Origin: Acidobacteria bacterium 13_1_40CM_65_14
Lineage (GTDB): Bacteria > Acidobacteriota > Vicinamibacteria > Vicinamibacterales > CAVVIG01
Assembly (NCBI GenBank): GCA_001917905.1
Contig: MNEX01000110.1
Span: 526 to 64,525, forward strand
DNA: 64,000 bases
Reading direction: 5' to 3'
In this document: positions 8,846 through 50,757 of the stretch, in pieces
Layout: the number at the start of each line of letters is the position of its first letter
How positions within the stretch are numbered: position 1 is the stretch's first letter
Notes under the pieces: generated by a model
The model's database searches: none
The model's input: the letters and a program-made list of their open reading frames with translations, nothing else
Told to the model about the DNA's origin: nothing
Program-made: the position numbers and the translations under genes

Positions 8846-8932
8846 AGCGCCTGCGGCCCGCGCGAGGAAAGCGAATCTTCGAGCGCCGCAGCGCGAGCGA
8901 GCGGGGGTGGGGCCCCGCGAGCATAAAAAAGG
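8846..8932 (+). repeat. Dispersed element B, copy 1, ending 10 nt before the metK ATG
   Basis: AGCGCCTGCGGCCCGCGCGAGG...GAGCGAGCGGGGGTGGGGCCCCGCGAGCATAAAAAAGG. Its A-run plus GGAG supplies the metK ribosome-binding site. Confidence 0.75.
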
Positions 8933-8942
8933 AGCGCGCGGC

Positions 8943-10094
8943 ATGAGCCGTAAGGGACGGCATCTATTTACGTCTGAATCGGTCACGGAAGGTCACCCCG
9001 ACAAAATCGCCGATCAGATTTCCGATTCCATTCTCGACGCGATCCTGGCGAAGGACCCCGTGAGCCGCGTCGCCTGCGAAACGCTCGTCACGACCGGCCT
9101 GGCCGTCGTCGCCGGCGAAATCACGACGAGCGCGTACGTCGACTTCCAGGACATCGTGCGCGCGACGATCAACGAGATCGGCTACAACCGGGGCAAGTAC
9201 GGATTCGACGGCGAAACGTGCGCGGTGCTGTCGTCCATTCACAGCCAGTCACCTGACATCGCGTTGGGCGTCGACACGGGGGGCGCCGGCGATCAGGGTC
9301 TGATGTTCGGCTTCGCGTGCATCGAGACCGAAGAGCTGATGCCGTTGCCGATCATGCTCGCGCACAAGCTCGCGAAGGGGCTCTCGTGCGCGCGGCGTGA
9401 CGGCGTCCTCGAGTACCTCCGCCCCGACGGCAAATCCCAAGTCACCATCGAATACGACGGCACCAAGCCGATCCGCGTCGACGCCGTCGTCGTCTCCAGC
9501 CAGCACAGCCCGCTGGTCACGCAGGAGACGATGAAGGAAGACATCGTCGAGAAGATCGTCAACCGCGTGATCCCCGAAGAGCTGCGCGACGAGAACACGA
9601 AGATCTTCGTGAATCCGACCGGACGCTTTGTCGTCGGCGGTCCGCATGGCGATGCCGGCGTCACCGGACGGAAGATCATCGTGGACACCTACGGTGGCGC
9701 CGCCCCGCACGGCGGCGGGGCGTTCTCCGGCAAGGATCCCACGAAGGTCGATCGCTCGGCGTGCTACATGGCGCGCTACATCGCGAAGAACGTTGTCGCG
9801 GCCGGCATCGCCGAGCGCGCCCTCGTCCAGCTCGCGTATGCCATCGGCGTTGCCGATCCGGTATCGGTTGCGGTCCACACGGAGGGGACTGGGCGCATTC
9901 CGGAAGAGAAAATCACCCAGATCGTCCGCGATCACTTCAAGCTGACGCCGCGCGGCATCATGGAGGAGCTCGATCTGCGACGGCCGATCTACAAGAAGAC
10001 CGCCGCGTTCGGCCATTTCGGCCGCAACGAGCCCGAGTTCACGTGGGAACGGACCGACAAGGCGGCCGCGCTTCGCGCCGCCGCCGGAGTGTAG
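8943..10094 (+). CDS. metK: S-adenosylmethionine synthetase
   Basis: [37 protein letters not shown] and [16 protein letters not shown]. The ATG at 8943 follows AAAAAAGGAG. Confidence 0.95.
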
Positions 10095-10116
10095 TCGGTC
10101 GCTCGTCGTTGGTCAG

Positions 10117-20086: not shown

Positions 20087-21853
20087 CTACCGATGCGTCC
20101 TCGGCGCCCGCGGTGGTTTCTCGCCTACGGCGACACGGTTCGCTTTCGCTCTTTCGCTTTCGCCTTTTGCCATCGATTCGCCTTTCGCCTGACCGGCTCG
20201 CTCCCCCAGCATCTCACGCGCGGAGCGCCGAAGGCCATCGCTAATCGCCTCGCCTCCCAGCATGCGCGCGAGCTCGTCGACTCGACGCGCCTCATCGAGT
20301 CGTCGGACGGTCGTCTTGGTGCGGCCGTGGTCGACACGCTTTTCGATCTGAAAGTGCGTGTCGGCGTAGGCGGCGATCTGCGGCAAGTGTGTGATGCACA
20401 GCACCTGAAACGCCGAGCCCAAGCCGCGCAGCTTGCGACCGACGACGTCCGCCACGCGTCCGCCGATCCCGGCGTCGACCTCGTCGAACACCAGACCCGG
20501 CGCCGCGGTGCTCGGCGGCCGATCGGCGGCGTCGTTGAACCCGTGGCGCGACGTCGCGGTGAGCGTCTTGATCGCCAGCATGATGCGTGACAACTCGCCG
20601 CCCGACACGATGCGCGCGAGCGGACGCAGATCTTCGCCGGGATTCGGCGAGACGAAGAACTCGGCGGCGTCGATGCCTCGCGCGCTCCATTCAGCCTCGG
20701 GCAGCGCGCCACCGAACCGCACCTCGAATCGCGTCTGCTCCATCGCCAGTTCGGCCAGCAGCGTCTCGAGTTGCGTCGCAAAGCCTCCGGCGACGCGACG
20801 CCGTGCGTGCGACAGCGCCTGGGCGGCCGCCAAGTAAGCCGTGCGCGCCGCGTCCACCGCGCGCTCGAGCTCGGCGATCCGCTCGTCGCCGCACTCGAGG
20901 TCGGACCGTTCCAGCTGCAGCGCCCGATGGCGGCTGATGACGTCGGCAAGCGTCGGCCCGTATTTCCGCTTCAAGCGCTCGAGCAGCGCCAGACGCTCCT
21001 CGACTTCCTGGAGCCGCGCGGGCGACGCCTCGATGCCCTCGGCATATCGGCGCAGAAACAGCGCCAGATCCTCGAGCTGTGACTTGATGGCTTCACGAGC
21101 CTCGAGGTACGGCTGGAATTGCGGATCGAGATCGGCGAGTTCCGCGACGCGACGCCAGACATTCCCGAGGGCCGACAAAATGGCGTCGTCACGCTCGTAC
21201 AACGACGCGTAGCTCTCCACGCACAACCGCTCGACGCGCTCCGCGCTGGCCAACACGTGTCGCAGCGCGGACAGCTCGTCGTCTTCGCCCGGCTTCGGCG
21301 CGGCGCGGTCGAGTTCGCCGAGCTGGAACGCGATGAGCTCCAACCGCGCGTTCCGATCGCTGGCGGCCGTCCGGACACGTGCGAGCTCCTCCTGGGCGGT
21401 TCGACACGCTTCGAACGCCAGGGCGCACGGCCCGGCGAGCGAATCGAGCGAACCGAATGTGTCGAGGACGCCGAGGTGTGTGGACGGATCGAGCAGTGTC
21501 TGATGCTCGTGTTGACCGTGGAGCTCGATCAACCGGGCCGAAAGATCCTTGAGCGCGCCAGCAGTGGCGAGCGCCCCGTTGATGAACGCGCGGCTCCGCC
21601 CTTGCGCGGTGATTTCGCGGCGGATCAGGAGCTCGTCGCCGCCGCTTTCAAAGAGGGCTTCGATGGCCGCGCTGTCCTCGCCCGTCCGCACCAGGTCTCC
21701 GGAGGCGCGTCCGCCGAGCAGCAGCCCGACGGCTTCGACCAGAATCGACTTGCCGGCGCCAGTTTCACCGGTAAGGACGTTGAGCCCGGGATCGAACTCG
21801 ACCTCGACCGAGTCGATGACGGCGAGATGCTGGATCCGGAGGAAGCGGAGCAT
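20087..21853 (-). CDS. recN: DNA repair protein RecN
   Basis: MLRFLRIQHLAVIDSVEVEFDPGLNVLTGETGAGKSIL, plus LVFDEVDAGIGG near the C-terminus. The last roughly 35 aa are encoded by a tandem-heptamer repeat. Confidence 0.9.
   Translation of the reverse strand: MLRFLRIQHLAVIDSVEVEFDPGLNVLTGETGAGKSILVEAVGLLLGGRASGDLVRTGEDSAAIEALFESGGDELLIRREITAQGRSRAFINGALATAGALKDLSARLIELHGQHEHQTLLDPSTHLGVLDTFGSLDSLAGPCALAFEACRTAQEELARVRTAASDRNARLELIAFQLGELDRAAPKPGEDDELSALRHVLASAERVERLCVESYASLYERDDAILSALGNVWRRVAELADLDPQFQPYLEAREAIKSQLEDLALFLRRYAEGIEASPARLQEVEERLALLERLKRKYGPTLADVISRHRALQLERSDLECGDERIAELERAVDAARTAYLAAAQALSHARRRVAGGFATQLETLLAELAMEQTRFEVRFGGALPEAEWSARGIDAAEFFVSPNPGEDLRPLARIVSGGELSRIMLAIKTLTATSRHGFNDAADRPPSTAAPGLVFDEVDAGIGGRVADVVGRKLRGLGSAFQVLCITHLPQIAAYADTHFQIEKRVDHGRTKTTVRRLDEARRVDELARMLGGEAISDGLRRSAREMLGERAGQAKGESMAKGESERAKANRVAVGEKPPRAPRTHR
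20141..20189. repeat. Single-arm tandem heptamer array (CTTTCGC-type) in the recN 3' end
   Basis: cgctttcgctctttcgctttcgccttttgccatcgattcgcctttcgcc encodes AKGESMAKGESERAKA. Confidence 0.7.
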
Positions 21854-25935: not shown

Positions 25936-26775
25936 ATGAGACACAGAATTCTCGCCGTGGTTCTCGCCGGCGCGCTGGTCGCTGTCGCCGCGATGCCGGC
26001 GTCGGCCGCGAACAAGGAACATCAACAGCTGATGGCCGACATCCGCATGCTGCAGGAGCAATCGCAGCTGCTGCAGAACATGCTCGCGTCGCTGACCGAC
26101 GTCGTGAAGACGTTGAGCACGCATCTCGATCAGCGGCTGGATCAGCAGAACGCGGCGCTCGTCAAGGGCTTCGCCGATCAGAAGCTGATTCTCGATACGT
26201 TGTCGAACGACGCGCGCGTCATTCGCGAACGTCTCGATGACAACAACGTCCGCATCGGCTCGCTGACGCAGGAAGTCGAAGCGCTCCGTCATGCCCTGCA
26301 GCAGCGTCCCACCTCGACGGAGGTCGATCCGACCGGCGCCGCCGCGACGTCGGGCGGCGGCTCGAACGCCGGCGGATCGGCGCCGCCGGTCGGCTTGTCG
26401 CCGCAGAAGATGCAGGAAACAGCCCAGGCCGACTACGCGGCCGGCCAGTACGATCTGGCGATCGAAGGGTTCCAGGCGTACATCAAGAATTTTCCGAAGT
26501 CCGACTGGGTCGACGACGCGCAGCTGTTCATCTGCAAGTCTTATCTGCTCGAGGGCAAGAACGACAAGGCCGTGGACGCATGCGACGCGGTGATCCGCAA
26601 TTACCCGAGCGGCAACGCGGTTCCTGAGGCGTACTATCGGAAAGGTCTCGCCCTGAGCAATCTCCGCGACGTCGCCGGCGCGCGCGCGGCGTGCGACACC
26701 GTCGTGAAGAATTACAAAGACAGCGACGTCGCGATCCTCGCGCAGCAATGCCTCGACCGATTGCGGCGCCCGTAG
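25936..26775 (+). CDS. cpoB: Tol-Pal system protein CpoB/YbgF
   Basis: Signal peptide, coiled-coil N-terminal domain, and a C-terminal TPR region (YDLAIEGFQAYIKNFPKSDW...). Located downstream of pal. Confidence 0.8.
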   Translation: MRHRILAVVLAGALVAVAAMPASAANKEHQQLMADIRMLQEQSQLLQNMLASLTDVVKTLSTHLDQRLDQQNAALVKGFADQKLILDTLSNDARVIRERLDDNNVRIGSLTQEVEALRHALQQRPTSTEVDPTGAAATSGGGSNAGGSAPPVGLSPQKMQETAQADYAAGQYDLAIEGFQAYIKNFPKSDWVDDAQLFICKSYLLEGKNDKAVDACDAVIRNYPSGNAVPEAYYRKGLALSNLRDVAGARAACDTVVKNYKDSDVAILAQQCLDRLRRP

Positions 26776-26780
26776 CCATT

Positions 26781-26915
26781 CAGAACTTAGAACTTAGAAC
26801 TCAGAACTCAGAACTCAGAACTTAGAAGTTCGGAGCCGACGATGTAGAATGCTTCGGCTCGTTCACCGTTCTCAGTTCTAAGTTCTAAGGTCTGAGTTCT
26901 CATTTCTGAGTTCTC
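26781..26915. repeat. Hairpin with tandem-heptamer arms (AGAACTY x7 / complementary units) between cpoB and ssb
   Basis: Left arm 26781-26828 and right arm 26867-26915. The loop contains its own small stem, GAGCCGA...TCGGCTC. Confidence 0.85.
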
Positions 26916-26932
26916 AACCCCGAAGGGCACCT

Positions 26933-28685: not shown

Positions 28686-30457
28686 GAATCACTCCTCAGA
28701 AGCGTCAGCTTGCCGAGCGCCGCGAGCAGCTCGTGCTCGATCTCGTCGATCGTCGGCAGTTTCAAAATCCGGCGCGCCAGCGCGCGCAGCTCGTCGCGGC
28801 GCAGCTCGCGGAGCACCTGTTTGGCGACTGGAATGGCGCCCGGCGTCATGCTGAAATCGGTCAGCCCCAGTCCGACGAGCAGCGTCAGCAGCGCCGGATC
28901 CGAGGCCATCTCGCCACAGAGCGACACCGGAATCCGCTGACGCTCGGCCGCGCGGCGGACCATCAGAATCATGCGCAGAATCGCCGGGTGCAGCGGCTCG
29001 TACAGCTGCGACACACGTTCGTCGGCGCGGTCGACCGCGAGGCAGTACTGAATGAGATCGTTGGTGCCGATTGTGAAGAAGTCGACCTCGCGCGCGAGCA
29101 GATCGGCGGTATACGCGGCGGCGGGAATCTCGATCATCACGCCGACCGGCACCGTCGGCACCTGCTCGCCGCGCCGCGCCAGCTCCGCGGCAGCTTCGGC
29201 GATCATGCGGCGCGCTTCGCGCAGCTGCTCCACGCTCGAGACGAACGGAAACATGATGCGGAGGCTGCCGTGCCGCGCGGCGCGCAGCAGCGCGCGCACC
29301 TGGACCTGGAACAACTCGGGCCGCGTGAGGCTGAGGCGCAGTCCCCGAAGGCCCTGGCGGCTTCCGCGCTGCTCGTCCGCCACCCATCCGCCCGCCAGCG
29401 GCTGCTCGACGAGCCACGACGTGATCTGATCTTCGTCGACGTCGAAGGTGCGAACGGTAACCGTGCCTGGCGCCATGCCCTCGAGCATGCCGCGATAGAT
29501 CTCGTACTGACGTTCCTCCTCGCCCACGTGGGCAATCCCGCTGGCCAGCAGGAACTCCGACCGGTACAGCCCAATGCCCTCGGCGCCGGCGTAGCGAGCG
29601 GCCGCGAGATCGTCGGGGAATTCGATGTTGGCGTCCAGCCGGATGGGCACGCCGTCTGCCGTCGAGGCGGGACGCCGGCGCTCGGCATCGGCGCCGGCCG
29701 CCGGACGCCGGTCGTCGGCGTGCCGTGCCGCGCGTGCGAGTTCCTCGACCGTCGGATCCACGATCACCTGGCTCGACGAGCCGTCGATGATGACGATCTG
29801 CCCGGGCTGCACCTGCCGGCTCGCATCGTGAAGGCCGACAACCGCCGGCACGTCGAGCGATCGCGCCAGGATCGCGGTGTGATACGTGCGGCTGCCCGCG
29901 TCGGTCGCAAAACCGCGGACTTTGGTCCAGTCCACCTGCGCGGCCAGCGACGGCGTCAGCTCGTCGGCGATCAGCACTGAGGCTTCGTCGAGTTCCCGGA
30001 GCAGATCTCTCGGCGTCGATACGCCCTGACGCAGGTTCATTCGCAGCCGCCCGACGAGATCGGCGACGTCGCCGGTGCGCTCGCGGAGGTACGGATCGGC
30101 CACCTCGTCCAACACGGCGCTGAACTCGTGGAACACCTGCTGCACGGCCCACTCGGCGTTGACGCGCTGGTCGCGGACGATGTCGGCGGCGCGCGGGACG
30201 AGCATCGGATCGTCGAGCATCAGGAGCTGCGCGTCGAAGAGCGACGCCATCTCCGGCAGACGCTTGGCGACGCGCGCGCGGATGTCCACGAGCTGCTCGC
30301 GCGATCGCACGCGGCTCTCGTCGAGCCGCCGCAGCTCGTGGTCGACGCGCCGCTGCGCGATCTGATACCGCAGCACCTGCGCGCGCTGGATCAGAATGAC
30401 CGCGCGGCCCGAGACGACGCCGGGCGACACGCCGATACCGGTCAGGCGCTGCATCAC
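28682..30457 (-). CDS. ptsI: Phosphoenolpyruvate-protein phosphotransferase (PTS Enzyme I)
   Basis: GIGVSPGVVSGRAV, GSRTYHTAILARSLDVPAVVG, the LRLSLTR region and FFTIGTNDLIQY. Confidence 0.9.
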   Translation of the reverse strand: MMQRLTGIGVSPGVVSGRAVILIQRAQVLRYQIAQRRVDHELRRLDESRVRSREQLVDIRARVAKRLPEMASLFDAQLLMLDDPMLVPRAADIVRDQRVNAEWAVQQVFHEFSAVLDEVADPYLRERTGDVADLVGRLRMNLRQGVSTPRDLLRELDEASVLIADELTPSLAAQVDWTKVRGFATDAGSRTYHTAILARSLDVPAVVGLHDASRQVQPGQIVIIDGSSSQVIVDPTVEELARAARHADDRRPAAGADAERRRPASTADGVPIRLDANIEFPDDLAAARYAGAEGIGLYRSEFLLASGIAHVGEEERQYEIYRGMLEGMAPGTVTVRTFDVDEDQITSWLVEQPLAGGWVADEQRGSRQGLRGLRLSLTRPELFQVQVRALLRAARHGSLRIMFPFVSSVEQLREARRMIAEAAAELARRGEQVPTVPVGVMIEIPAAAYTADLLAREVDFFTIGTNDLIQYCLAVDRADERVSQLYEPLHPAILRMILMVRRAAERQRIPVSLCGEMASDPALLTLLVGLGLTDFSMTPGAIPVAKQVLRELRRDELRALARRILKLPTIDEIEHELLAALGKLTLLRSDS

Positions 30458-30798
30458 TTTTTACCGCTCGTGGGGCCCCACCCCCACTCGCTGCGGCTCG
30501 TCTCGCTGTGCTCGCTCGCCGCGGCCGCAGGCGCTTCTTCGCCGAACCCTGACGCCACGAGGGCGACCAGCGCGCTCACCGCATCGCTCTCGTCGTGGCC
30601 GTCCGCGCTGATGGTGATCGTCGATCCGCGCGCGGCGGCGAGCAGCAGGATGCCCATGATGCTCTTGCCGTCCATCTCGCGTGAATCGCGTGCGACGCGC
30701 ACGCGCGACTGATACCGCGTGGCGAGGTGCACGAACTTCGCGGCCGCCCGCGCGTGCATGCCCAGCTGGTTCACGACGGTGACCGACTGCGAGATCAT
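30454..30798 (-). CDS. ptsH: HPr phosphocarrier protein with a roughly 25-aa repeat-encoded C-terminal tail
   Basis: VVNQLGMHARAAAKFV (His-15 region) and GKSIMGILLLAA (Ser-46 region). The tail EEAPAAAASEHSETSRSEWGWGPTSGKK is encoded by element B copy 2. Confidence 0.85.
   Translation of the reverse strand: MISQSVTVVNQLGMHARAAAKFVHLATRYQSRVRVARDSREMDGKSIMGILLLAAARGSTITISADGHDESDAVSALVALVASGFGEEAPAAAASEHSETSRSEWGWGPTSGKK
30458..30537 (-). repeat. Dispersed element B, copy 2, at the HPr 3' end, ending at the ptsI start
   Basis: The minus-strand sequence reads GAAGCGCCTGCGGCCGCGGCGAGCGAGC...GCGAGTGGGGGTGGGGCCCCACGAGCGGTAAAAAGTGATG. Confidence 0.75.
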
Positions 30799-31314: not shown

Positions 31315-32348
31315 GAATGGCCAATATCACGATGACGGACGCGCACGCGCGCCCCGGCGACGTCGGCGAGAGCTTTTCGCAGACGTTCGGCGATCATCAC
31401 CGATCGGTGGCGGCCGCCCGTGCAGCCGACGGCGATGGTCAGGTAGCTCTTCCCTTCCGCGATGTAGTACGGCACGACGTAGCGGACGTATTCCGTGAGC
31501 CGGTCCATGAATGCGCGCGACGAGGTGTCGCGCTCCATGAACTCGGCGACGGCGCGATCGCGGCCGGTCCGGCGCCGCAGCGCGGGCACGAAGTGCGGAT
31601 TCGGCAGACAGCGCGCGTCGAACACGAGATCGGCGTCGACCGGCACGCCATGCTTGAAGCCGAAACTGAGCAGCGTGATCGTCAGCCGGGCCGCGGATCG
31701 ATCGCGCGAGAGCCCCATGAAGAACTGCCGCAGCTCGTGGACGGTCATGTCCGACGTGTCGACGATCTCGTCCGCGAGATCGCGGATCGCGTTCATCCGC
31801 TCACGCTCATCGCGAATGCCTTCGGTGACCGATCGATCCGGCGCGAGCGGATGCGGGCGGCGCGTTTCGCTGAACCGGCGGACGAGCGTGGCATGGCTCG
31901 CCTCCAGAAAAATCAGGATCGGGTTGAGCCGCGGCATCTTCCGCAGATTCTCGAAGACCTTGGCGAATGACGACAGGAATCCGCCTTCGCGCACGTCGAC
32001 GACGATTGCGACCTTGGTGATGTCGCCGCCCGTCTGCAGCGACAGCTTGGCGAGCGTGGGAATCAGCGTGGTCGGCAGGTTGTCGACGCAGAAGTACCCG
32101 AGGTCTTCGAGCGCCCGGATCGCCTGCGATTTTCCCGAGCCGGACAGACCTGTCAGCACGATGAACGGCTGGCCGCCCTTCTTTTTCCGATGCTCGCGGG
32201 GCCCGACTTTTCTCACCCGCTCCGGGGTCCCACCCCCCTCGCCGTTGCTCAGCGCACGCGCGCTTCGCGACGGCTCACGGCTGCCGCTCGCTCGCGCCGA
32301 CCTCCCAGCCTTACCCGTCACACCGGCCCGACCTGCCCGAGGACTCAT
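31311..32348 (-). CDS. rapZ: RNase adapter / nucleotide-binding protein RapZ (YvcJ family)
   Basis: FIVLTGLSGSGKSQAIRALEDLGYFCVDNLP and CTGGRHRSV. The ATG at 32348 overlaps the hprK stop (ATGA) but adds about 55 aa encoded by element B copy 3. An alternative GTG start lies at 32216. Confidence 0.85.
   Translation of the reverse strand: MSPRAGRAGVTGKAGRSARASGSREPSRSARALSNGEGGGTPERVRKVGPREHRKKKGGQPFIVLTGLSGSGKSQAIRALEDLGYFCVDNLPTTLIPTLAKLSLQTGGDITKVAIVVDVREGGFLSSFAKVFENLRKMPRLNPILIFLEASHATLVRRFSETRRPHPLAPDRSVTEGIRDERERMNAIRDLADEIVDTSDMTVHELRQFFMGLSRDRSAARLTITLLSFGFKHGVPVDADLVFDARCLPNPHFVPALRRRTGRDRAVAEFMERDTSSRAFMDRLTEYVRYVVPYYIAEGKSYLTIAVGCTGGRHRSVMIAERLRKALADVAGARVRVRHRDIGHS
32181..32298 (-). 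repeat. Dispersed element B, copy 3 (3' module partly duplicated), in the rapZ 5' region
   Basis: The minus strand reads GCGCGAGCGAGCGGCAGCC...GGCGAGGGGGGTGGGACCCCGGAGCGGGTGAGAAAAGTCGGGCCCCGCGAGCATCGGAAAAAG. Confidence 0.65.
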
Positions 32349-36250: not shown

Positions 36251-36266
36251 CGAAACGTTAAACGCG

Positions 36267-36352
36267 CCACCACAGAGGACACGGGGGACACGGAGGAACA
36301 AACCTGTTCCGGTTGGCTTTACCCTCTGTGTCCTCCACGTCCTCCGTGGTGG
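36267..36352. repeat. Hairpin CCACCACAGAGGACACGGGGGACACGGAGG / complement, between the lptC/A gene and lptB
   Basis: Arms at 36267-36296 and 36323-36352. The arms are near-identical to those at 54791-54876. Confidence 0.85.
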
Positions 36353-36358
36353 AGAGTT

Positions 36359-38494
36359 TCACGACTGACACTTACCGCCGCCTTTGGTCTGCGTGCGGGT
36401 CTGTTGATTGCCGTCGACGACGATACTATCGGTCGATTTGAGGAAGGTCAACGTCTTGCCGGTCGTCTCGCGCTCGCACTCGTCGATGATCTTCACCGGC
36501 GCGCCGACGATGACGTAGCGCTCGTCGGCGGTGGTGTAGGTCATGCGCATGCCGGTGGTTTTCCGATTCTGCTCGCGCAACGTGACGTTGTCGTAGGCCT
36601 CGGCGCGATCGAGCTCGTCGCCTGACGGCTTCAAGTACAGCTCGATCTTCGCGGCGGTCATGTCGCCCTCGGGGCTGCTCATGTGCGCGTCGCCGGTGTA
36701 GGTGAGGCGCCGCGGCGCGTCTTCGTATGTGAGATCCTTGGCCGTCGCCACCGAGCGGACCCGTTCTTTCTTGTTCTCCTTGTTGGTCTGCTCGAGCATG
36801 GTGGCGCTGGTGACTGCCGACGCGGTGAGATCGCCGGTCTTCGAGTCGATCAGGATCGATTCGCCTTTGATCGACGTGTCGCCCTGCCAGAGCTGCGCTG
36901 CGCCGGTGTACGCCGTCTTCGACGTGGTGCCGTCGTAATCGAGAGCCGTCGCCGTTACGTTCACCGGCTGATCCTGTTTCAGCATGGACGGCATTTTCGC
37001 GGTGTTTTCTCCAGCGCGCGGGGCCCCGCCCCCACTCGCGCCGGCCTCGCCAGCCTTCTTCGTCGGCTGGAGCACGCTTTTCACTTTGTCGGTTCCCGTC
37101 GCCGTGGCTTGGACTTTCGGTCCGTCGAGCGTGACGTCGATCTTGGCGGCATCGACGGCGATCTGCTCGTTCACGACGCGCGGCGCGGCGGCGCCCGGTT
37201 CGGATCCACTGAGCTCCAAAGTGCCTTTGTCGACGTCGTAGCGGGCCGTCGCGGCGACCGCCAACAGCTTCCCTTCTTCGAAGCGCACCGTGTGCGTGAA
37301 CTTGGCGTCCTCGATCGCGCTCATGCCGCGCTTGAGTCCGACGTCGAGGGTCGCGGAGCTCGCGGCGCGATTCACGTTCTGTCCGCGCTCGCGGAACTGG
37401 ACGTTGCCGGAGAACAGCGCGCGCGTGAGGCCGCGGCCAGCCTCGCCCTTCGCATTGAGCGTCGCCGACTGAATCGTGCGGCCCGGCGTGTCCGCCTCTG
37501 GCGGGATCGTCAACCGCACGGCGTCACGCGCGACGAGCGCGGTGGGCGTCGAGCCGTCGCGATCGAGCGTGATGTCCATCATCCCGGCGACGATCTCGCG
37601 CCCGGCCTTCCCCGCTTCTCCCGCGACCTGAACGGACGCGGCGCTGCCGATCGTCGCGTGCTCGAGCGTCTCGTCGGCGGCGTATTTCAGCGTGACGTCA
37701 CGCCCGCTCAGCGCTTGCAGCGCGCCAGGAGCCGCCTTCGCCGTCGTGATTTTCGTGTCGCCCCGCAGCTCGATCATCTCGATGCGCTTGCCGTCCTCAC
37801 TCAGATGCGCGACGGCGGTGTCCGCCTCGATGAGTTGTTCCCCGCGCTGCATGCGGACGTTCTTGTCGAACTGCCGGTACCGCTCGCGCCGGGCGAACGT
37901 GGCATTGCCGGACGTAATCTCGGTCGCGCCGCCGCCTCCGTCTGCGGCCGTGGTGATGACCGCCTGATCGAGAATCGAGAGCACGTCGCGCTCGCGGTCG
38001 AACGTCATGCCGACGCCCTTCGCGGTGGTCTTTCCCTCGGTGAGCTCGACCGGACCCGGCGCGCGGACGGTGTTGTCGCTCTTCGCGAACGTCGCATGCT
38101 CGGTGTGCGCGCGAACCTCGGACGAGACGAGCTGGACGTCGCCGTTCAACACGATCGTCGAGCCGTCAGCGCCGACCTCCGCTTCCTTCCCGGAGGCCTT
38201 GAGCGTGCCCTTGCCGTCTTTCTCGTCGGCCGTGATCGTGACGCCGTAGAGCTTCATCGATCCGTTGGCGTATATCTGCTGCGTCTGGAATTCGACGCTG
38301 ACATCCTGACGAGACAATTTGAAGCGCTCGAGCCGGCCCCCGGCCACTTCAATGGCAGCGCCGGGGTCGGACCGAGGGATGGGCGTCGAGGCCGCCGGCG
38401 GGTGGCGCGGCTTCCACTGCCGAGCAACGATTACGACAAACACCACGGCGAACGCGGCGATGATCAGCCGGGCTCTTCGTTGCCAGCGTGTCAC
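36359..38494 (-). CDS. Giant LptC/LptA (OstA-fold) LPS transport protein, membrane-anchored, 711 aa
   Basis: GTG start and an N-terminal anchor LIIAAFAVVFVVIV. After that it is all-beta with repetitive OstA-like segments. It occupies the lptC-lptA position upstream of lptB-rpoN. Element B copy 4 lies in frame about 210 aa from the C-terminus. Confidence 0.7.
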   Translation of the reverse strand: MTRWQRRARLIIAAFAVVFVVIVARQWKPRHPPAASTPIPRSDPGAAIEVAGGRLERFKLSRQDVSVEFQTQQIYANGSMKLYGVTITADEKDGKGTLKASGKEAEVGADGSTIVLNGDVQLVSSEVRAHTEHATFAKSDNTVRAPGPVELTEGKTTAKGVGMTFDRERDVLSILDQAVITTAADGGGGATEITSGNATFARRERYRQFDKNVRMQRGEQLIEADTAVAHLSEDGKRIEMIELRGDTKITTAKAAPGALQALSGRDVTLKYAADETLEHATIGSAASVQVAGEAGKAGREIVAGMMDITLDRDGSTPTALVARDAVRLTIPPEADTPGRTIQSATLNAKGEAGRGLTRALFSGNVQFRERGQNVNRAASSATLDVGLKRGMSAIEDAKFTHTVRFEEGKLLAVAATARYDVDKGTLELSGSEPGAAAPRVVNEQIAVDAAKIDVTLDGPKVQATATGTDKVKSVLQPTKKAGEAGASGGGAPRAGENTAKMPSMLKQDQPVNVTATALDYDGTTSKTAYTGAAQLWQGDTSIKGESILIDSKTGDLTASAVTSATMLEQTNKENKKERVRSVATAKDLTYEDAPRRLTYTGDAHMSSPEGDMTAAKIELYLKPSGDELDRAEAYDNVTLREQNRKTTGMRMTYTTADERYVIVGAPVKIIDECERETTGKTLTFLKSTDSIVVDGNQQTRTQTKGGGKCQS
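37004..37062 (-). repeat. Dispersed element B, copy 4 (short), in frame inside the lptC/A ORF
   Basis: The minus strand reads ...GGCGCGAGTGGGGGCGGGGCCCCGCGCGCTGGAGAAAACACCGCGAAAATG, followed by an in-frame ATG at 36994. Confidence 0.55.
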
Positions 38495-40233: not shown

Positions 40234-40278
40234 CCTCCTTCACTCAATCGGTACACGGGTTGCTCGATGCGCTTAATC

Positions 40279-40756
40279 AACACAAAGGGCACAAAGGACA
40301 CAAAGCTTTTTTATGGGACCGAACGCCGTGAGTCGTCGGGTCATCGGCTCCGCCATCAAAGTCCACAACGCTCTGGGCGCCGGTGTTCTCGAAAGCGCAT
40401 ACCACGCTTGCCTTTGTCATCAATTCGCCGAAGACGGCCTGCAGTTTCAACACCAGGTGCGGTTGCCGATCGTCTACGAAGGAGTCGAGCTGCCAGCTGT
40501 CTATCGGGTCGACTTCATCGTCGAAAAATGCCTCATCGTCGAGGTCAAGTGTGTGGAAAAACTGCTACCCGTTCACTCCGCGCAGCTGCTTTCCTACCTG
40601 CGACTAAGCGGCTACAAGCTCGGACTGCTAATCAACTTCAATGTTGCTCATCTCCGCGACGGCATCCGGCGGAAGATCAACGGTCCTGAAAGCGAGTTGT
40701 GACCGTCTCCTGAGGGGACTGGGTTTTCCCTTTGTGTCCTTTGTGTCCTTTGTGTT
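40279..40756 (+). mobile_element. Tandem-heptamer hairpin cassette carrying a GxxExxY ORF in its loop (putative selfish insertion)
   Basis: The left arm AACACAAAGGGCACAAAGGACACAAAG (40279-40305) and the right arm CCCTTTGTGTCCTTTGTGTCCTTTGTGTT (40728-40756) are inverted arrays of CACAAAG units. The interior has lower GC than its surroundings. Confidence 0.45.
40313..40702 (+). CDS. GxxExxY protein (PD-(D/E)XK nuclease-like small protein family)
   Basis: 129 aa with HNALGAGVLESAYHACL (G-x-x-E-x-x-Y) and RVDFIVEKCLIVEVK (D...E-x-K-like), followed by QLLSYLRLSGYKLGLLINF. Confidence 0.8.
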   Translation: MGPNAVSRRVIGSAIKVHNALGAGVLESAYHACLCHQFAEDGLQFQHQVRLPIVYEGVELPAVYRVDFIVEKCLIVEVKCVEKLLPVHSAQLLSYLRLSGYKLGLLINFNVAHLRDGIRRKINGPESEL

Positions 40757-40790
40757 CACTCAGCGATGGAACAAGCTACCCGTCCGAGTA

Positions 40791-46281: not shown

Positions 46282-46285
46282 CCGG

Positions 46286-47724
46286 CTACTCCCACTCGAT
46301 CGTCGATGCGCGACGAGATGCGTGCGAGCAGGTCGTGCGGCAGGCGCGCCCAGTCAGCCGTCATGCCGTCCTTGCTCTCGACCGCGCGAATCGCGGCGGT
46401 GTATTCGTAGGTCCGCTCGTCACCCATCACACCGACGCTCTGCACTGGCAGCAGCACCGCGAAGCTTTGCCACAGACGCGCGTACCAGCCCTCGCGCCGC
46501 ACTTCCTCCGCGACGATCGCGTCGGCCCGCCGCAACAGGGCGAGGCGATCCGGTGTCACCGCGCCGAGAATCCTGACGGCCAATCCAGGCCCGGGAAATG
46601 GCTGGCGGACGACGAATTCCTCGTCCAGTCCGAGCTGACGGCCGACGACCCGGACTTCGTCCTTGAAGAGCTCGCGCAGCGGCTCGACGAGCGTCATGCG
46701 CATGCGATCGGGCAGGCCGCCGACGTTGTGGTGACTCTTGATGACCGACGATTGTCCGACAATCGCAACCGATTCGATGACGTCCGGATACAGCGTCCCT
46801 TGAGCGAGAAAATCGACCCGACCGAGGTTCGTCGCTTGCTCCTCGAACACGTCGATGAACGTCGCACCGATGATTTTGCGCTTCTGTTCGGGATCGACGA
46901 CGCCGGCGAGTCGATTGAGAAACAGCTGCGATGCATCGACGAACACGAGTGGAAGCTGCAGTCGCTCGAAGCGCTTCCGTACCTGACTCGCTTCGTCGAG
47001 TCGCAGGACGCCGTTGTCGACGAAGACGCACGTCAGCTGATCGCCGACGGCGCGACGAATGAGCAACGCCGCGACCGTCGAGTCGACGCCGCCGCTCAGC
47101 GCGCAGACGACGCGTCCGCTGCCTACTTGCTTTCTGATCCGCGTCGTCGCCTCGTCGACAAACGACGCCATCGTCCAGTCGCCGGTGCAGCCGCAGACGC
47201 CGAACGCGAAGTTACGCAGGATCTCGAGGCCGCGCTCGGTGTGCACGACCTCCGGATGGAACAGCAACGCGTAGAGCTGGCGCTCCGGATGCGCCATCGC
47301 GGCCACAGGCGCATTCGCGCTGGTCGCGACGACGGCGAAGCCAGCCGGCGCGGCGGCGACGAAGTCACCGTGGCTGGCCCACACGCGGATCTCGTCGGGC
47401 ACCTCGCTGAACAACGCGGCCGGATCGGGCCGGCGCGACGCGACCGCCGAGCGCGTCCGCCATCAACTGCATGCCGTAGCAGATGCCGAGCACCGGTTTG
47501 CCGAGGTCGTAGACCTGCGGATCGCATTTCGGCGCGCCCGGCTCCGACACGCTCTTGGGTCCGCCCGAGAGGATGATCCCCACCGGATTCCGCGCGCGGA
47601 TTTTTTCGATCGGCGTGTCCGGCGGCCACACTTCCGAGTACACCGACAGTTCTCGCAGCCGCCGAGCGATGAGTTGGGTGTACTGAGAGCCGAAATCCAG
47701 AACGATGATGGTTTGGTGGTTCAC
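46286..47724 (-). pseudogene. guaA: GMP synthase (glutamine-hydrolysing) interrupted by two frameshifting deletions
   Basis: GATase part [20 protein letters not shown]...[17 protein letters not shown] is in the frame of 47724. VWASHGD...[12 protein letters not shown]...ARISSRI is in the frame of 47414. The canonical end TIEWE-stop (46286-46303) is in a third frame. About 10 aa are missing near 47425-47440 and about 20 aa near 46300-46310. Confidence 0.75.
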
Positions 47725-47812
47725 CTAGTGGAGTGTCTCTTCCAAATTACTACCGGGCCGCTCCGATGTCGCGGCCCGAAAATCGCGGTCGAAGGCTCGT
47801 GGTGACTAGTAC
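47725..47812 (-). promoter_or_regulatory. Conserved leader/promoter element, copy 2, abutting the guaA GTG
   Basis: The minus strand reads GTACTAGTCACCACGAGCCTTCGACCGCGATTTTCGGGCCGCGACATCGGAGCGGCCCGGTAGTAATTTGGAAGAGACACTCCACTAG-GTG. It contains an 8-bp stem CGGGCCGC/GCGGCCCG. Confidence 0.6.
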
Positions 47813-47866
47813 TCATCCAGCTGATGCCGCCCACTAGGAGCCTGAGGTTAACGCTATTATAACGGT

Positions 47867-49078
47867 GTGTCCGATCGGCTCACCACAAGATGTTGTAGTG
47901 CACTTGCCCTGATCGCTTCGTGCTCGTTGGCGTTTTGCGGGCAGGCGGCCGGGCCCGCGCCCTTTCCGACGCCGCGCGCGCACAAAGGCAAGATCGACAA
48001 CACGCCGCCCGCGCTTCTTCCGATCCGAACGGTGTGGACGCTTGCGCTGAAGAACCCGCTCGCCTTTGCGCCGGCGTACGACAAGACGCTTGCGTTCTTC
48101 CCCATCGCCGGCGATCGCGTCGCCGCGTACGATCTTCCGACGGGAAAACAGCAATGGCTCGTGTCCGCTCGACCGCAGAGCGATCCGGTGGCCGGTGACG
48201 GATTGCTGTTTCTCGTCGAGCCGGACACGCTGATGGCGCTGCGCGCCAGTGACGGCGGCGTCGCGTGGCGGCTGCCGTTTGCGGAACCTCTCGCAGTTCA
48301 TCCCGTGTGGGACAACGGCTGGCTGATCGTGGCCTCGAAGGCCGGATCGATTCTGGCCTTCCGCGCAACCGATGGTCAGTTGATCTGGTCGCACGACGTC
48401 GGCTCGCCCGCTCACGCGCTGCCGGCACTCGCCGCGGATCGCGTCTACGTCCCAACTGGAGACGGACGCGTCGTCGCCCTGCGCGTCGATACTGGCGCAC
48501 CGGTCTGGGAGCGCCGGCTCGGCGGCCCGCCCGATGACATCCTCGCGCTCACCGATCGCGTGTACGTCGGATCGGAGGACAACTACTTCTACTCACTGGC
48601 GACGAAAGATGGACGCGTCGACTGGCGATGGCGCACCGGCGGCGACGTCATCGGTCTTCCACTCGTCGACGAACATCGGGTGTACTTCGTCGCGCTCGAT
48701 AACGTCCTCCGCGCGCTCAATCGCGACTCGGGCGTGCAGCAGTGGATGCGAGCGTTGCCGCTGCGGCCGATGACCGGCCCGACTCGAGCGGGCTCGACGA
48801 TTGTCGTGACGGGGCTCGCTCCCTCGCTGCGAGCGTTCAATCTGTCGGATGGGGCCGCTGCCGGGGAGATTCCGGCGGCGCCTGAAGTCGGCGCACCGCC
48901 GTACGTCTTCGACGATTCGGTGACGAAGCTTCCACAGCTTCTCTACGTGACGCGCGACATCGCCGCCGGCGCGACGGCCACGCTCGTGACGCACAGTTTC
49001 GAGCCGACGATGAGTCCGGTGAGTCCGCTGCCCAACCTGATCACGTTCGGACCGCCGGCTCCCGCGACAACAAAGTAG
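47867..49078 (+). CDS. PQQ-like beta-propeller repeat protein (BamB-like outer-membrane assembly lipoprotein candidate)
   Basis: GTG start, a signal/lipobox-like CSLAFCG, and repeated motifs of the type DG..W...: ASDGGVAWR, ATDGQLIWS, VDTGAPVWE, TKDGRVDWR and RDSGVQQW. Confidence 0.7.
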   Translation: MSDRLTTRCCSALALIASCSLAFCGQAAGPAPFPTPRAHKGKIDNTPPALLPIRTVWTLALKNPLAFAPAYDKTLAFFPIAGDRVAAYDLPTGKQQWLVSARPQSDPVAGDGLLFLVEPDTLMALRASDGGVAWRLPFAEPLAVHPVWDNGWLIVASKAGSILAFRATDGQLIWSHDVGSPAHALPALAADRVYVPTGDGRVVALRVDTGAPVWERRLGGPPDDILALTDRVYVGSEDNYFYSLATKDGRVDWRWRTGGDVIGLPLVDEHRVYFVALDNVLRALNRDSGVQQWMRALPLRPMTGPTRAGSTIVVTGLAPSLRAFNLSDGAAAGEIPAAPEVGAPPYVFDDSVTKLPQLLYVTRDIAAGATATLVTHSFEPTMSPVSPLPNLITFGPPAPATTK

Positions 49079-49110: not shown

Positions 49111-49219
49111 GTGAAGAAATCACGTGAACGCAAAGGCCGCTAAGACCGCAAAGACGAATCTTTTCGAAAAAGATGCTTTGCGCGCTTTGCGATCTTTGCG
49201 TTCAACGTGATTCTTTCAC
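49111..49219. repeat. Hairpin with tandem-heptamer arms (CGCAAAG-type) downstream of the BamB-like gene
   Basis: Left arm GTGAAGAAATCACGTGAACGCAAAGGCCGCTAAGACCGCAAAGACG and right arm GCTTTGCGCGCTTTGCGATCTTTGCGTTCAACGTGATTCTTTCAC. The loop is the palindrome-like AATCTTTTCGAAAAAGAT. Confidence 0.85.
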
Positions 49220-49224
49220 AAGCG

Positions 49225-49719
49225 CTAAAGCCTTCGCGCTATGTCCGTCAAAGCTTTCGCGCTCCGATCGACATGTTCGCGGACGGCCTTGGCGAGACGG
49301 CGGATGCCCTCTTCGATCCGCTCGTGCGACGGCGCGGAGAACGCGAGCCGCGCGAAGCTGCTGCGCCGCCCGTCGACGAAAAACGCGCTTCCAGCCACAT
49401 AGACGACGCCGTGCGCGACTGCGCGGTCGAGAAGCGCGTCAGTGTCCACCTCGCTCGCGAACGACGCCCAGAGAAAGAAGCCGCCCTCTGGCTGGGGCCA
49501 CGACATGAGATCGCCGAGCTCGCGACCGAGCGCCCGTTCCATGACGCATCGCTTGGCCTGGTCGTAAGTCCAGGCGAAGATGTCAGGCGCCGGGAACCCC
49601 GGAGCGAACGAAATCAGGTCCGGCACTCGCAGGCCGAGCGCGCCCATCTTCCGGATGGCCGATTCCTGCATCGTGGCCGCCGCGCGCGAAAACACTCTGT
49701 CGTAATTGATAACCGGCAT
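49225..49719 (-). pseudogene. Remnant of a class I/II (LysN/2-aminoadipate-type) PLP aminotransferase lacking about 250 central residues
   Basis: The N-terminal roughly 50 aa (MQESAIRKMG...LISFAPGFPAPDIF) are joined in frame directly to the C-terminal roughly 110 aa (WPQPEGGFFLWASF...ARLAFSAPSHERIEEGIRRL). The PLP-lysine region is absent. Confidence 0.7.
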
Positions 49720-50650
49720 AGAGGGTGATGTAGGCGCCGAGCGCCGTGAGACCGAGATACTGGAACACGAGGCCGCGCAGCAGCAGCGCGGCGAGCTGCA
49801 GCGGGAAGACCGCGAGGCCGACGAGCGGCACGAACGCAATCAGCCCGACGCCCGACCACGCGAGCGCCGACGCGACGGTGGCCGCGATGACGAGTGCGAA
49901 AACGATGACGAAGACTCCGGCGAGCGGGCGGAACTCGGCGCGCACGAAGCGCGCCACCGCGCGGGCGGCACGGCCGACGCCGACGCCTTCCACCGCCATC
50001 GCAATCTGCGTCAGCAGATACAGCAGGTTGACGAGCGTGATCCACGCGACGAGCGCCGCGGCGGTGACCGCCGCGATGAAGGTCCACCCGACAATCAGCA
50101 CTCGTCCGCTGACCGCCTGATAGCCGCGAACGATCACGATCAGATAGCTGCCGACCGACAGCGCGTAGACGCTCATCAGCAGCAGCCCGAGCACGAGATA
50201 CGAACGGAAGAGGCGCGCGCAGCCGTCGGTGAACCGCTGCAGCGTGAAGCGCGACGCGCCACGCAGATTCTCAAAGGTGATCGGCTCGCGCTCGATCGGG
50301 CCAGCGGCGCTGTTGGCGGCGAGCAGCACGTCCACCGTGCCGCCCTTGACCAGGAACATCAGCACCGACCCGCCCAACAGCACGACGCTGAACGCGGTCA
50401 TGAAGGCCACGAACGCGACCGGCTCGGAGAGCAGCGTGCTCGCAATGGTCGTGAAGATGTCGCGCAGACTGCCCTGCAGCAGATCCGCGAGGTCGGCGCC
50501 GAGCAGCACCGCGACGAGGATCGCGGCACCGAGGATCGGCACGGCGAGCAGCACCTGAAACGTCGTCTCGGCGACGAACTGAATCGCGACCGTCTGCCAG
50601 TTCGCGGCGGCGAGCAGCGCGCCGCGCTTGAGCAAGTGCTTGAGGTCCAA
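49583..50650 (-). CDS. Multi-pass membrane protein of unknown function
   Basis: 355-aa hydrophobic ORF with about 8 predicted TM segments and a TTG start. Its last roughly 45 codons run out of frame into the aminotransferase remnant. Confidence 0.6.
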   Translation of the reverse strand: MDLKHLLKRGALLAAANWQTVAIQFVAETTFQVLLAVPILGAAILVAVLLGADLADLLQGSLRDIFTTIASTLLSEPVAFVAFMTAFSVVLLGGSVLMFLVKGGTVDVLLAANSAAGPIEREPITFENLRGASRFTLQRFTDGCARLFRSYLVLGLLLMSVYALSVGSYLIVIVRGYQAVSGRVLIVGWTFIAAVTAAALVAWITLVNLLYLLTQIAMAVEGVGVGRAARAVARFVRAEFRPLAGVFVIVFALVIAATVASALAWSGVGLIAFVPLVGLAVFPLQLAALLLRGLVFQYLGLTALGAYITLYAGYQLRQSVFARGGHDAGIGHPEDGRARPASAGPDFVRSGVPGA

Positions 50651-50653
50651 GTC

Positions 50654-50757
50654 GTTTTCTATGCTCGCGAGGCCCCACCCCGCTCGCGGCTCGCTCGGCG
50701 GCGCCGCGTTGCGCGGCGCTTCCCTCCGGCGCCTCGCTCGGGCCGCAGGCGCTTTTC
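50654..50757 (-). repeat. Dispersed element B, copy 5, ending 3 nt before the TTG start at 50650
   Basis: The minus strand reads AAAGCGCCTGCGGCCCGAGCGAGG...GAGCGAGCCGCGAGCGGGGTGGGGCCTCGCGAGCATAGAAAACGACTTG. Confidence 0.75.

Follow-up and report, generated by a model that had tools for sequence, protein, structure and literature searches.

Mycobacterial interspersed repetitive units (MIRUs) "insert themselves at start codons" with a coupled internal open reading frame (ORF) (PMC12548453, summarising Supply et al. 1997). They are short, apparently mobile interspersed repeats that lie between operon genes in the orientation of those genes, and an ORF in or through the repeat overlaps the flanking stop and start codons (by 4 nt, as ATGA), with downstream translation kept. 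Here, we describe an element with a similar way of life in a 64,000-nt stretch of Acidobacteria bacterium 13_1_40CM_65_14 (Acidobacteriota, Vicinamibacterales; contig MNEX01000110.1, positions 526 to 64,525, forward strand; hereafter, at its full length, the window). An earlier note, made from the sequence alone, had reported five copies of an 80- to 110-nt element, always in sense orientation just 5′ of a start codon, and had argued for a cis-acting RNA or promoter module rather than a neutral repeat. The observation is real and statistically solid, but the evidence does not bear out a novel regulatory RNA or promoter. Instead, the element belongs to a dispersed, evidently mobile, insertion-polymorphic repeat family, whose copies accumulate in 5′ untranslated regions (UTRs) and intra-operon spacers beside the ribosome-binding site or start codon, mostly in sense. 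We think it probable that this is a MIRU-like co-transcribed interspersed repeat whose A-rich tail keeps translation of the downstream gene working.

The analogy with MIRUs is one of placement and logic only, as sequence and phylum appear unrelated. The present element differs in having strongly covarying hairpins and a mosaic build, in being mostly single-copy rather than arranged in arrays like variable-number tandem repeats, in occurring also in 5′ UTRs, and in that 60% of its sense copies lack an ATG in the tail. MIRUs are not known to have comparable dyad symmetry. Anatomically, the nearer parallel is with the mosaics formed by repetitive extragenic palindromic sequences (REPs) and bacterial interspersed mosaic elements (BIMEs). 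Like REPs, BIMEs and REPINs, the family consists of high-copy extragenic imperfect palindromes (20-40 nt in REPs) with compensatory stem changes, forms mosaics with other modules, is conserved across species, and is probably co-transcribed with genes. However, REPs carry a GTAG/CGTC tag and are found chiefly 3′ of genes, where neighbouring ORFs are unidirectional or convergent (PMC3733652). The present family fails both the tag and the location 3′ of genes, as it sits upstream of starts with a polar A-rich tail; in the sampled loci, it rarely forms inverted pairs, and no REP-associated tyrosine transposase (RAYT) was found nearby.

Other short repeats offer partial parallels. Palindrome-associated transposable elements (PATEs) derived from IS200/IS605 likewise have no terminal inverted repeats or target duplication, have asymmetric ends with subterminal hairpins and a short single-stranded tail 3′ of the right-end hairpin, and behave in a strand-specific way. 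By contrast, our element has no conserved left-junction tetra- or pentanucleotide, its orientation follows the gene and, as far as visible, not replication, and no tnpA or tnpB was seen in the local loci. Enterobacterial repetitive intergenic consensus sequences (ERIC, also called IRU) and the Neisseria Correia elements (NEMIS) are transcribed intergenic hairpin repeats with orientation-dependent effects on neighbouring genes, but they have terminal inverted repeats (in Correia elements with a TA duplication) and no tail abutting a start. Rickettsia palindromic elements are palindromic repeats that can lie in frame within protein-coding genes, a state that recurs here in the tail of HPr, the N-terminus of rapZ, and a linker in an LptC/LptA-like protein. 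Still, the in-frame state is the minority here, and most copies are extragenic.

To locate copies in the window, we used a covariance model (CM) built only from other genomes' copies and run over the whole window with filters off. All five loci of the earlier note were among the six best matches, at or near the positions it had given. The window holds three intact copies, at 50651-50753 (-, 83 bits), 8846-8933 (+, 63.9 bits), and 30454-30535 (-, 52.3 bits), and two degenerate ones, at 37002-37087 (-, 25.2 bits) and 32180-32282 (-, 23.3 bits). With up to three mismatches, the 19-nt core GGGGTGGGGCCCCGCGAGC matches four times, at 8904 (+), 30466 (-), 37014 (-), and 50663 (-), against 0.11 matches expected from shuffles. 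The 13-mer AGCGCCTGCGGCC, which had been described as identical in three copies, is exact at 8846 (+), 30523 (-), and 50741 (-). These three intact copies fall in three different length classes. Further CM matches at 20831-20910 (-, 23.4 bits) and 7899-7995 (-, 19.7 bits) lack the conserved core, and we read them as chance. A fourth exact AGCGCCTGCGGCC, at 52408-52420 (-), lies antisense within a histidine-kinase gene with no core or tail alongside (12 bits by the CM); it is probably a codon-driven coincidence and possibly a relic.

Beyond the window, a reference scan of one genome per species with the query GGGGTGGGGCCYCRCGAGC returned at least 118 stretches with matches. Among the matches listed, all but three came from metagenome-assembled genomes (MAGs) of Acidobacteriota/Vicinamibacterales (subdivision 6, "gp6") plus one Candidatus Cybelea contig. 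The three exceptions (L022, L026, and L101, from Solimonas, Singulisphaera, and a Phycisphaeraceae MAG) are obvious chance matches. The element-bearing contig labelled Candidatus Cybelea sp. (L015, DASRSZ010000017.1) is 3.8 kb long; we take this name to denote a non-acidobacterial lineage, and the contig may have been mis-binned. Every element-bearing genome found was a MAG. CM and core matches indicate hundreds of near-identical copies in other genomes. Among the sequences sampled, at least 131 cores are exact. The 5′ block accompanies 79 of them, in length classes of ~80, 82, 89, and 101 nt, whereas in the remaining 52 this core and tail follow different 5′ modules, which are also recurrent. 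Tandem arrays and nested insertions occur, subfamilies are near-identical across species, and the family as a whole is one of mosaic hairpin-forming interspersed repeats of about 55-165 nt.

As far as we searched, this MIRU-like and REP-like repeat family of the Vicinamibacterales was previously undescribed. The earlier note had recognised no known RNA motif, and with the gathering thresholds of Rfam 15 the window likewise gave no match. When three loci with the element were searched by E-value, the only matches were sub-threshold ones to microRNA precursors, on other long hairpins and none on the element. No match to the element was found by blastn against plasmid and phage collections, and a full-text search of the literature on Acidobacteria and Vicinamibacter repeats, including the core string, found no description. 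The sole literature match to the core string was an unrelated CRISPR paper on S. aureus.

From 5′ to 3′, the element begins with a conserved block AGCGCCTGCGGC, followed by a middle hairpin that differs in size between copies, contains tandem G·A pairs, and is usually capped by a C-GNA-G triloop. Next comes the core hairpin of ~26 nt (a variable arm, GGGG-GTGGGG-CCCC, and the complementary arm), and last a tail of 7-12 nt. Its ends are accordingly AGCGCCTGCGGC on the 5′ side and GGGGGTGGGGCCCC plus the tail on the 3′ side, and the sampled loci (0.96 Mb) hold 174 matches to the core apex. Base composition in the body is 48% G, 34% C, 13% A, and 5% T, whereas the A-rich and C-poor tail (consensus ATTGAGAAATG) has 49% A and 5% C. 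Some copies carry an extra 5′ module, GGCCGTGCTGRGMTG...GWATCAGC, which makes a composite element of ~150 nt (L078 2060-2117, L105 4664-4735, L110 1945-2010, and also L040, L082, L087, L093, and L117). The stem of this module covaries as well (GCTGA/TCAGC vs. GCCGA/TCGGC), with G·U wobbles included.

The element is structured, and its base pairs are kept by compensatory changes, whether as RNA or as single-stranded DNA. For 18 sequences of the 101-nt class, RNAalifold predicted seven covarying pairs and four structural elements: P1, a small invariant hairpin in the 5′ block; P2, in which GC..GGCG pairs with CGCC..GC around a 2x2 internal loop of tandem G·A; P3, a 7-bp stem with a C-GNA-G triloop that follows a 10-nt asymmetric loop CCGGAGGGAA and shows compensatory changes in 3-9 of the 18 sequences per pair; and P4, the core hairpin. 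Across 114 CM matches from 100 sources, in an alignment that was itself fitted to the model, standard pairs filled 97.1% of cells, compared to 87.1% in column shuffles and 39-50% with slid partners. Double changes affected 21 of the 24 pairs, in 136 cells vs. 28 expected. Independent of any alignment, the variable pair of the core was C-G in at least 89 copies, T-A in 14, T-G in 4, and C-A in none, and the core arms thus covary around an invariant apex. The C/T and G/A variation between the shared blocks of the earlier note is therefore real and compensatory. G·U is commoner than A·C on the sense strand (32 vs. 13, p = 0.007), so structure matters on that strand, as RNA or as top-strand single-stranded DNA. 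We dropped thermodynamic stability as evidence because z-scores are uninformative at such G+C content, and used covariation instead.

This covariation also bears on the most trivial account of the repeats, that their similarity is a by-product of GC-rich low complexity or of a shared encoded peptide. The element is indeed 82% G+C and rich in GAGCGAGC-like repeats, and three window copies are at least partly translated. Against this stand the fourfold occurrence of the core where 0.11 was expected, the near-identical copies that number in the hundreds in other genomes, and the covarying hairpins. A conserved peptide can be ruled out because, in our own reading, the element is translated in different frames in HPr and rapZ; the repeat is thus conserved as nucleotides and not as a peptide. 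We give the by-product account practically no weight.

A structured RNA with a function of its own fits part of the same evidence. Under such a reading, the GGGG-GUGGGG-CCCC hairpin or the GGA-rich loop CCGGAGGGAA would be bound by a global protein or cut by an RNase, which would bring many unrelated genes under shared post-transcriptional control or stabilise the flanking cistrons. The invariant apex with covarying arms, the tolerance of G·U over A·C on the sense strand, the sense bias, and the placement in 5′ UTRs and between cistrons all agree with this, as does a sequence conserved beyond structural need and above the flanking genes. There is also precedent, in that RNases target transcribed ERIC and Correia repeats, with effects on the stability of the mRNA. 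However, the downstream genes have no common functional theme, presence at a given gene is not kept among close relatives, antisense copies persist, and two of the window copies are decaying. We therefore regard a cis-acting regulatory or processing RNA as distinctly unlikely.

The turnover among relatives is clearest where filled and empty sites can be compared. In four contigs (L119, L120, L123, and L124) that encode an HPr 93-95% identical to that of the window, the ptsI site is empty and reads ...GGCGAAGACGT|ATGCAGCGCC, and the stop codon of HPr falls within ptsI. The window instead reads ...GGCGAAGA[81 nt]ATGCAGCGCC, and the flanks are near-identical to those of the empty sites. At metK, the empty site of L137 reads ...GCCGGA|AGGAGCGCGCGGCATG, and the window has an insert of 88 nt there. 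The CM found no match at any of 75 other metK loci, including those with a MetK 88-93% identical to that of the window; at one of these positions, in L127, lies a diverged core plus tail that the CM left unscored. Copies in ribosomal-protein operons, with genes checked by Pfam, occupy different junctions in different genomes: rpsJ|rplC in L105, rplC|rplD and rplB|rpsS in L078, and rplN|rplX in L110, where a degenerate copy also lies at rplD|rplW. The same junctions measure 0-36 nt in at least one of the other compared genomes. Because of the empty metK and ptsI sites and the differing ribosomal-protein junctions, we conclude that these are insertions and not a conserved gene-specific leader, and the cis-regulatory leader proposed by the earlier note does not stand. 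Its wider claim that the repeat is not neutral agrees with the covarying hairpins and with the strong biases in orientation and position described below.

The insertions left few marks of their mechanism. Neither of two clean empty/filled pairs shows a target-site duplication, and left/right flank matches across the family were barely above shuffled pairings, and most exceptions were due to tandem arrays or to repeats in the flanks. Terminal inverted repeats are absent, since the element starts with AGCGCCTGCGGC and finishes with GCGAGC plus the A-rich tail, and these ends are not inverted copies of each other. The element thus fails the criteria of miniature inverted-repeat transposable elements (terminal inverted repeats and a fixed target duplication), a match to which the earlier note had named as evidence against its view. 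The left flanks hold no conserved target motif, as their logo is merely purine-rich. Sequence resembling the 5′ block lies just past both window sites (ATGC-AGCGCCTG at ptsI and GGAGCGCGCGGC at metK), which raised the idea of insertion anchored by homology. This is not general: matches to the 5′ block in the 36 nt after the tail averaged 6.39 of 12, compared to 6.8-7.2 at control positions, and we rejected homology anchoring. In the sampled loci (8-kb pieces), just five inverted core pairs stood 250-3000 nt apart, in three loci; the genes between them (Ldh-like, BON, GDPD, AAA) include no transposase.

The ptsI-site copies of the window and L121 are 97.5% identical (79/81), above the 86-89% of the flanking EIIA, HPr, and ptsI genes. 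This high identity points to selection, to homogenisation between copies, or to repeated insertion. The L121 copy additionally holds a nested 42-nt hairpin.

Orientation and position relative to genes are strongly non-random. We counted these for exact-core copies with our own crude gene caller. The downstream gene was on the same strand in 99 cases and on the opposite strand in 25, and between co-directional genes 72 copies were sense and 16 antisense (p = 1e-9). Divergent regions held 18 copies and convergent ones 4 (p = 0.004). Where the next start was no more than 30 nt away, sense copies outnumbered antisense ones by 33 to 2, compared to 34 to 12 at greater distances (Fisher p = 0.019). 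A start lay within 35 nt of the core in 41 of the 99 same-strand copies, most commonly at the offset of the tail's own ATG, and sense copies stood a median of 34 nt from the next start and 55 nt from the previous stop. The genes downstream are functionally diverse and include those for ribosomal proteins, metK, and ptsI; from N-terminal sequences, we presume pth, ruvA, ubiD, atpA, and ilvC to be among them. The family thus points toward the downstream gene in ~80% of cases, and the claim that orientation is always sense was too strong, as intact antisense copies exist.

Such a bias need not come from the transcript. A selfish repeat at the level of DNA, of the REP/BIME type or the IS200/IS605-derived PATE type, would have its hairpins recognised by a tyrosine (HUH) transposase on single-stranded DNA, with no role for the RNA. 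Its bias could stem from the insertion mechanism (an exposed non-template or lagging strand, or AT-richer ribosome-binding sites) or from the avoidance of polarity, since antisense transcripts would be C-rich and Rho-attracting; the sense strand is 48% G and 34% C, and antisense RNA is C-rich in turn. Even more than 30 nt from the next start, 74% of copies are sense. The anatomy is also consistent with a selfish repeat: terminal inverted repeats and target duplication are lacking, the ends are asymmetric with hairpins near both, an invariant apex with covarying arms is seen as in REPs, mosaic modules and tandem arrays as in BIMEs, and subfamilies are near-identical across species. C-GNA-G triloops and tandem G·A pairs are classic motifs of stable DNA mini-hairpins. 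Against a selfish repeat, there is no conserved 5′ target tetra- or pentanucleotide and no GTAG/CGTC tag, and in the sampled loci inverted pairs are few, with no transposase between them. Moreover, REPs are mostly 3′ of genes (PMC3733652), whereas the present family is 5′ (divergent 18 vs. convergent 4). The sense bias climbs to 33:2 beside starts, and some essential ribosomal-protein genes have no initiation context other than the tail, which must therefore be at least compatible with translation. On balance, we consider a purely selfish repeat a serious but doubtful alternative.

The tail is where the element meets translation. Its logo is A-N-T-R-A-R-A-A-A-W-G. Of 128 copies, 79 have a stop codon (TGA or TAA) at tail positions 3-5 and 37 have an ATG at positions 9-11; in 24, both are present, in the same frame. 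In 19 copies, the tail ATG is itself the start of the gene, as it is for the ribosomal proteins L4, L24, and L3 (the last with one extra A in the tail), and in these essential genes the tail appears to be the only initiation context. In 20 copies, the tail ATG opens a mini-ORF; 6 of these mini-ORFs share an ATGA with the called start at their end, and another 3 run 4-10 nt into it. Together with the read-through of HPr to a TGATG at the ptsI start, these ATGA mini-ORFs and tail starts are the features in which the family most resembles MIRUs.

In the window, an extended -10-like box TGCTAGACT at 8779-8787 (+) directly follows the stop of the xerD-like gene upstream of metK, and a comparison of metK upstream regions showed that close relatives keep it with or without the element. 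Because this conserved box lies upstream, the element should be inside the transcribed metK leader. A second extended -10-like box, TGCTATAGT, stands at 50758-50766 (-), 4 nt upstream of the copy at 50651-50753, and TAGAAT and TATATT occur 4-5 nt upstream of copies in L098 and L018. We infer that leader transcripts include the element, which in some cases, perhaps at 50651-50753, makes up the entire 5′ UTR. The form TGCTAnAnT recurs in the metK loci L125-L137 and at 8779-8787 (+), with a near-copy at 50758-50766 (-), and may be a common promoter -10 form in this lineage.

These boxes lie outside the element, and that bears on the suggestion that it is itself a portable promoter, with an A-rich UP-like tail and an NGACA -35-like box driving the downstream gene. 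Some tails do run on as AAATGCNGACAG or TTGACA, and elements do point at genes. However, no sigma-70 consensus promoter (-35/-10, 16-18 nt spacing) was found in or beside the two window copies scanned, at metK and 50651-50753, by a scan that also missed TGCTAGACT and TGCTATAGT. Many copies end 0-12 nt before the start, which leaves no space for a -10 box and leader; others sit inside a ribosomal-protein operon, where a promoter is unnecessary; and the metK box is upstream of the element and also present in empty sites. The promoter module of the earlier note is thus very improbable. Nor was an intrinsic terminator found at the same two copies. The A-rich tail is on the sense strand, and on the antisense strand the T-run precedes the hairpin, unlike in a terminator.

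We return to the co-transcribed, MIRU-like repeat that we prefer. In the mechanism we propose, the element would be co-transcribed with the downstream gene, its G-rich, T-poor body would fold on itself, and the A-rich tail, which would find almost no pairing partner, would stay single-stranded and so provide or preserve an accessible initiation region. A stop codon in the tail could end ribosomes reading through from upstream, and a tail ATG could serve as the downstream start or open a mini-ORF ending at or near it; stop and start together would permit termination-reinitiation. Insertion at a start codon would hence be tolerated, and possibly useful, in sense orientation only. An antisense copy would instead put a GC-rich paired segment before the start and yield a C-rich, possibly Rho-sensitive transcript. 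The sense bias would then reflect selection on the transcript. In line with this, starts next to an element had a predicted unpaired probability over -18 to +5 of 0.51, compared to 0.41 for 566 other starts (p = 3e-7), and flipping the element in silico lowered it from 0.50 to 0.36 (p = 1e-4), although the control starts, taken from the same loci, also come from our gene caller, and A-richness is built into the tail.

That last qualification is one of several points that weigh against this reading. Transcription through the element and use of its tail are both read from sequence. Sense orientation is not obligatory, as intact antisense copies make up about 18-20% of the total, and a tail ATG is missing from 60 of the 99 sense copies. 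Because the Shine-Dalgarno sequence of metK is native, the tail does not in every case act as the functional ribosome-binding site. The excess of ATGA overlaps (6/20, with ~2/20 expected by our own estimate) is modest and depends on the gene caller. Single-sequence folding energies were no better than those of shuffles (z = -1.2 to +0.2), and hairpins that act in single-stranded top-strand DNA during transposition would be expected to show the same tolerance of G·U. The identity of the ptsI-site copies could be the result of gene conversion or independent insertion rather than selection. Finally, two of the five copies in the window are decaying, which speaks against the element being indispensable wherever it is inserted.

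A stronger version would hold that the repeat is a mobile "translation-initiation cassette" exploited by the host, a natural counterpart of synthetic hairpin-insulator and bicistronic designs. In these engineered parts (bicistronic design, RiboJ-type insulators), a self-folding upstream structure and a leader mini-cistron with its stop over the start give context-independent initiation, and the principle of a coupled stop and start is used in biotechnology (PMC12548453). The likeness here is an analogy drawn from sequence statistics and predicted accessibility. As a cassette, the G-rich body would shield the ribosome-binding site from the surrounding 67% G+C mRNA, and the stop, start, or mini-ORF of the tail would hand ribosomes to the next cistron. 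By hopping between junctions, it would rewire or standardise translation, even in ribosomal-protein operons, and would sometimes fuse or extend proteins, as in the HPr tail and LptC-LptA. We consider this unlikely. A bolder variant would have the element copied via an RNA intermediate, for which the sense bias, the A-rich tail at the 3′ end, and 5′ ends that vary between copies provide a hint.

The individual window copies illustrate these different situations. Their gene context comes from Pfam and our own ORF-based gene caller, which reproduced the Pfam-supported genes of the window. The earlier placement of every copy just 5′ of a start holds for metK, ptsI, and the 355-aa protein, but not for rapZ, where the copy is partly translated, or for the lpt gene, where it is in frame. 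The metK copy belongs to the 89-nt class and is an insertion in the 5′ UTR at 8842-8930 (+), with boundaries taken from the empty L137 site. It comprises the AGCGCCTGCGGCC 5′ block (8846-8858), the middle hairpin, the core hairpin (8897-8922), and the A-rich tail (8923-8930), which ends 12 nt before the ATG (8943-8945) of a gene whose MetK domains Pfam confirmed. The Shine-Dalgarno sequence GGAG (8931-8934) lies, like the ATG, outside the element in target sequence; it is native because the empty L137 site carries the same AGGAGCGCGCGGCATG. The earlier note had read the A-run plus GGAG as the metK ribosome-binding site, and of these the A-run comes from the element whereas the GGAG does not.

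The second copy (82-nt class) lies at 30455-30535 (-) between HPr and ptsI, within a minus-strand cluster lptC/A–lptB–rpoN–hprK–rapZ–EIIA(Man)–HPr–ptsI, in which lptB and rpoN are presumed from gene order without a Pfam check. It has its 5′ block at 30535-30523, its core hairpin at 30491-30466, and the tail GGTAAAAAGTG at 30465-30455, which adjoins the ptsI ATG (30454-30452). The HPr ORF (30454-30798, -) continues through the element and stops at TGATG (30452-30456), where, by the sequence, the ORF list, and the empty-site alignment, its stop TGA (30456-30454) overlaps the ptsI start. As a result, HPr has 114 aa in the window, compared to the lineage-standard 92 aa, with the extra tail EEAPAAAASEHSETSRSEWGWGPTSGKK. 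It reaches 132 aa in L121 and L122 after a further nested insertion, and the stop/start overlap at ptsI is kept in all alleles.

The two window copies that lie within reading frames, in rapZ and the lpt gene, are decaying, unlike the other three. The rapZ copy (32180-32298, -) lies in the 5′ part of the ORF, and its core is split by ~27 extra nt (a partial tandem duplication). The start of the ORF is ambiguous, either ATG 32348 (with an ATGA overlap with hprK) or GTG 32216; the RapZ domain begins at ORF residue 63, and in our reading of the sequence no start codon lies between the 3′ end of the element and the rapZ P-loop. This copy is thus apparently translated at least in part. The copy at 37002-37087 (-) has lost its 5′ block, retains GAGTGGGGGCGGGGCCCCGCGCGC as its core, and is in frame inside an uninterrupted 711-aa LptC/LptA-like ORF (36359-38494, -) with an N-terminal transmembrane segment and Pfam matches to LptC (residues 92-177) and LptA (512-622). 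It encodes a Gly/Ala-rich stretch of 20 residues in the linker just ahead of the last LptA module. Initiation at the internal ATG would yield an LptA without a signal peptide, and the copy may mark a former gene boundary turned into an LptC-LptA fusion.

The highest-scoring copy (50651-50753, -; 101-103-nt class) takes up most of a 139-nt divergent intergenic region between the 355-aa protein, which the earlier note called a membrane protein and which has no Pfam match, and a 1325-aa histidine kinase. It abuts the TTG start (50650-50648) of the former and comprises the 5′ block (50753-50741), the P2/P3 hairpin, the core (50687-50663), and the 12-nt tail ATAGAAAACGAC (50662-50651). Its P2/P3 hairpin has an 8-bp inner stem with an AAC triloop, whereas most family copies have 7 bp with a C-GNA-G triloop.

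The window contains further repeats that are separate from this family. A second shared motif of ~110-150 nt (CTAGTGGAGTG..CTACCGGGCCGCTC..GTCGCGGCCCGA..CGAAGG..GTGACTAGTAC) occurs at 5050-5240 (-) and 47700-47835 (+), upstream of unrelated genes for an SSF sodium:solute symporter (3616-5052) and a BamB/PQQ-like beta-propeller protein (47927-49078). A tRNA-like reading of the inverted repeat at 5067-5217 and 47725-47834 was rejected, as ARAGORN found no tRNA and there was no Rfam match. This separate motif could be another repeat family or a shared regulatory site. In the spacers at 26775-26928, 36260-36356, and 54784-54880, purine-rich tandem repeats of 6-9 nt are arranged as long inverted repeats that would form long hairpins. 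Their sequences vary from genome to genome: the window has, for example, (AGAACTY)n and GGAGGACACGGGGGACAC, whereas GCTGGAAGCTGG and GATCGGGC are examples from elsewhere. Such repeats also occur in intercistronic spacers of L078, L105, and L110, even in ribosomal-protein operons. Lastly, a gene for a 129-aa PD-(D/E)XK nuclease (PDDEXK_3, 40313-40702) lies within 40270-40765, bracketed by inverted (CACAAAGG)n arms that are 89% complementary and 424 nt apart, and resembles a small discrete unit.

Vicinamibacterales are among the most abundant soil bacteria, and their intergenic repeats affect routine annotation. The 22-aa extension of HPr, the ambiguous start of rapZ, and the LptC/A fusion are effects on gene calling, and start annotation, assembly, and binning are affected as well. 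The insertion polymorphisms could be used as strain markers, and the hairpin plus tail is a candidate insulator part for high-GC hosts. If our reading is true, a repeat that lands at start codons in essential operons with its own initiation region would be a second, independent case of the MIRU principle in an unrelated phylum. It would also offer a natural test of initiation accessibility in very GC-rich mRNAs, one that the many empty/filled pairs make feasible.

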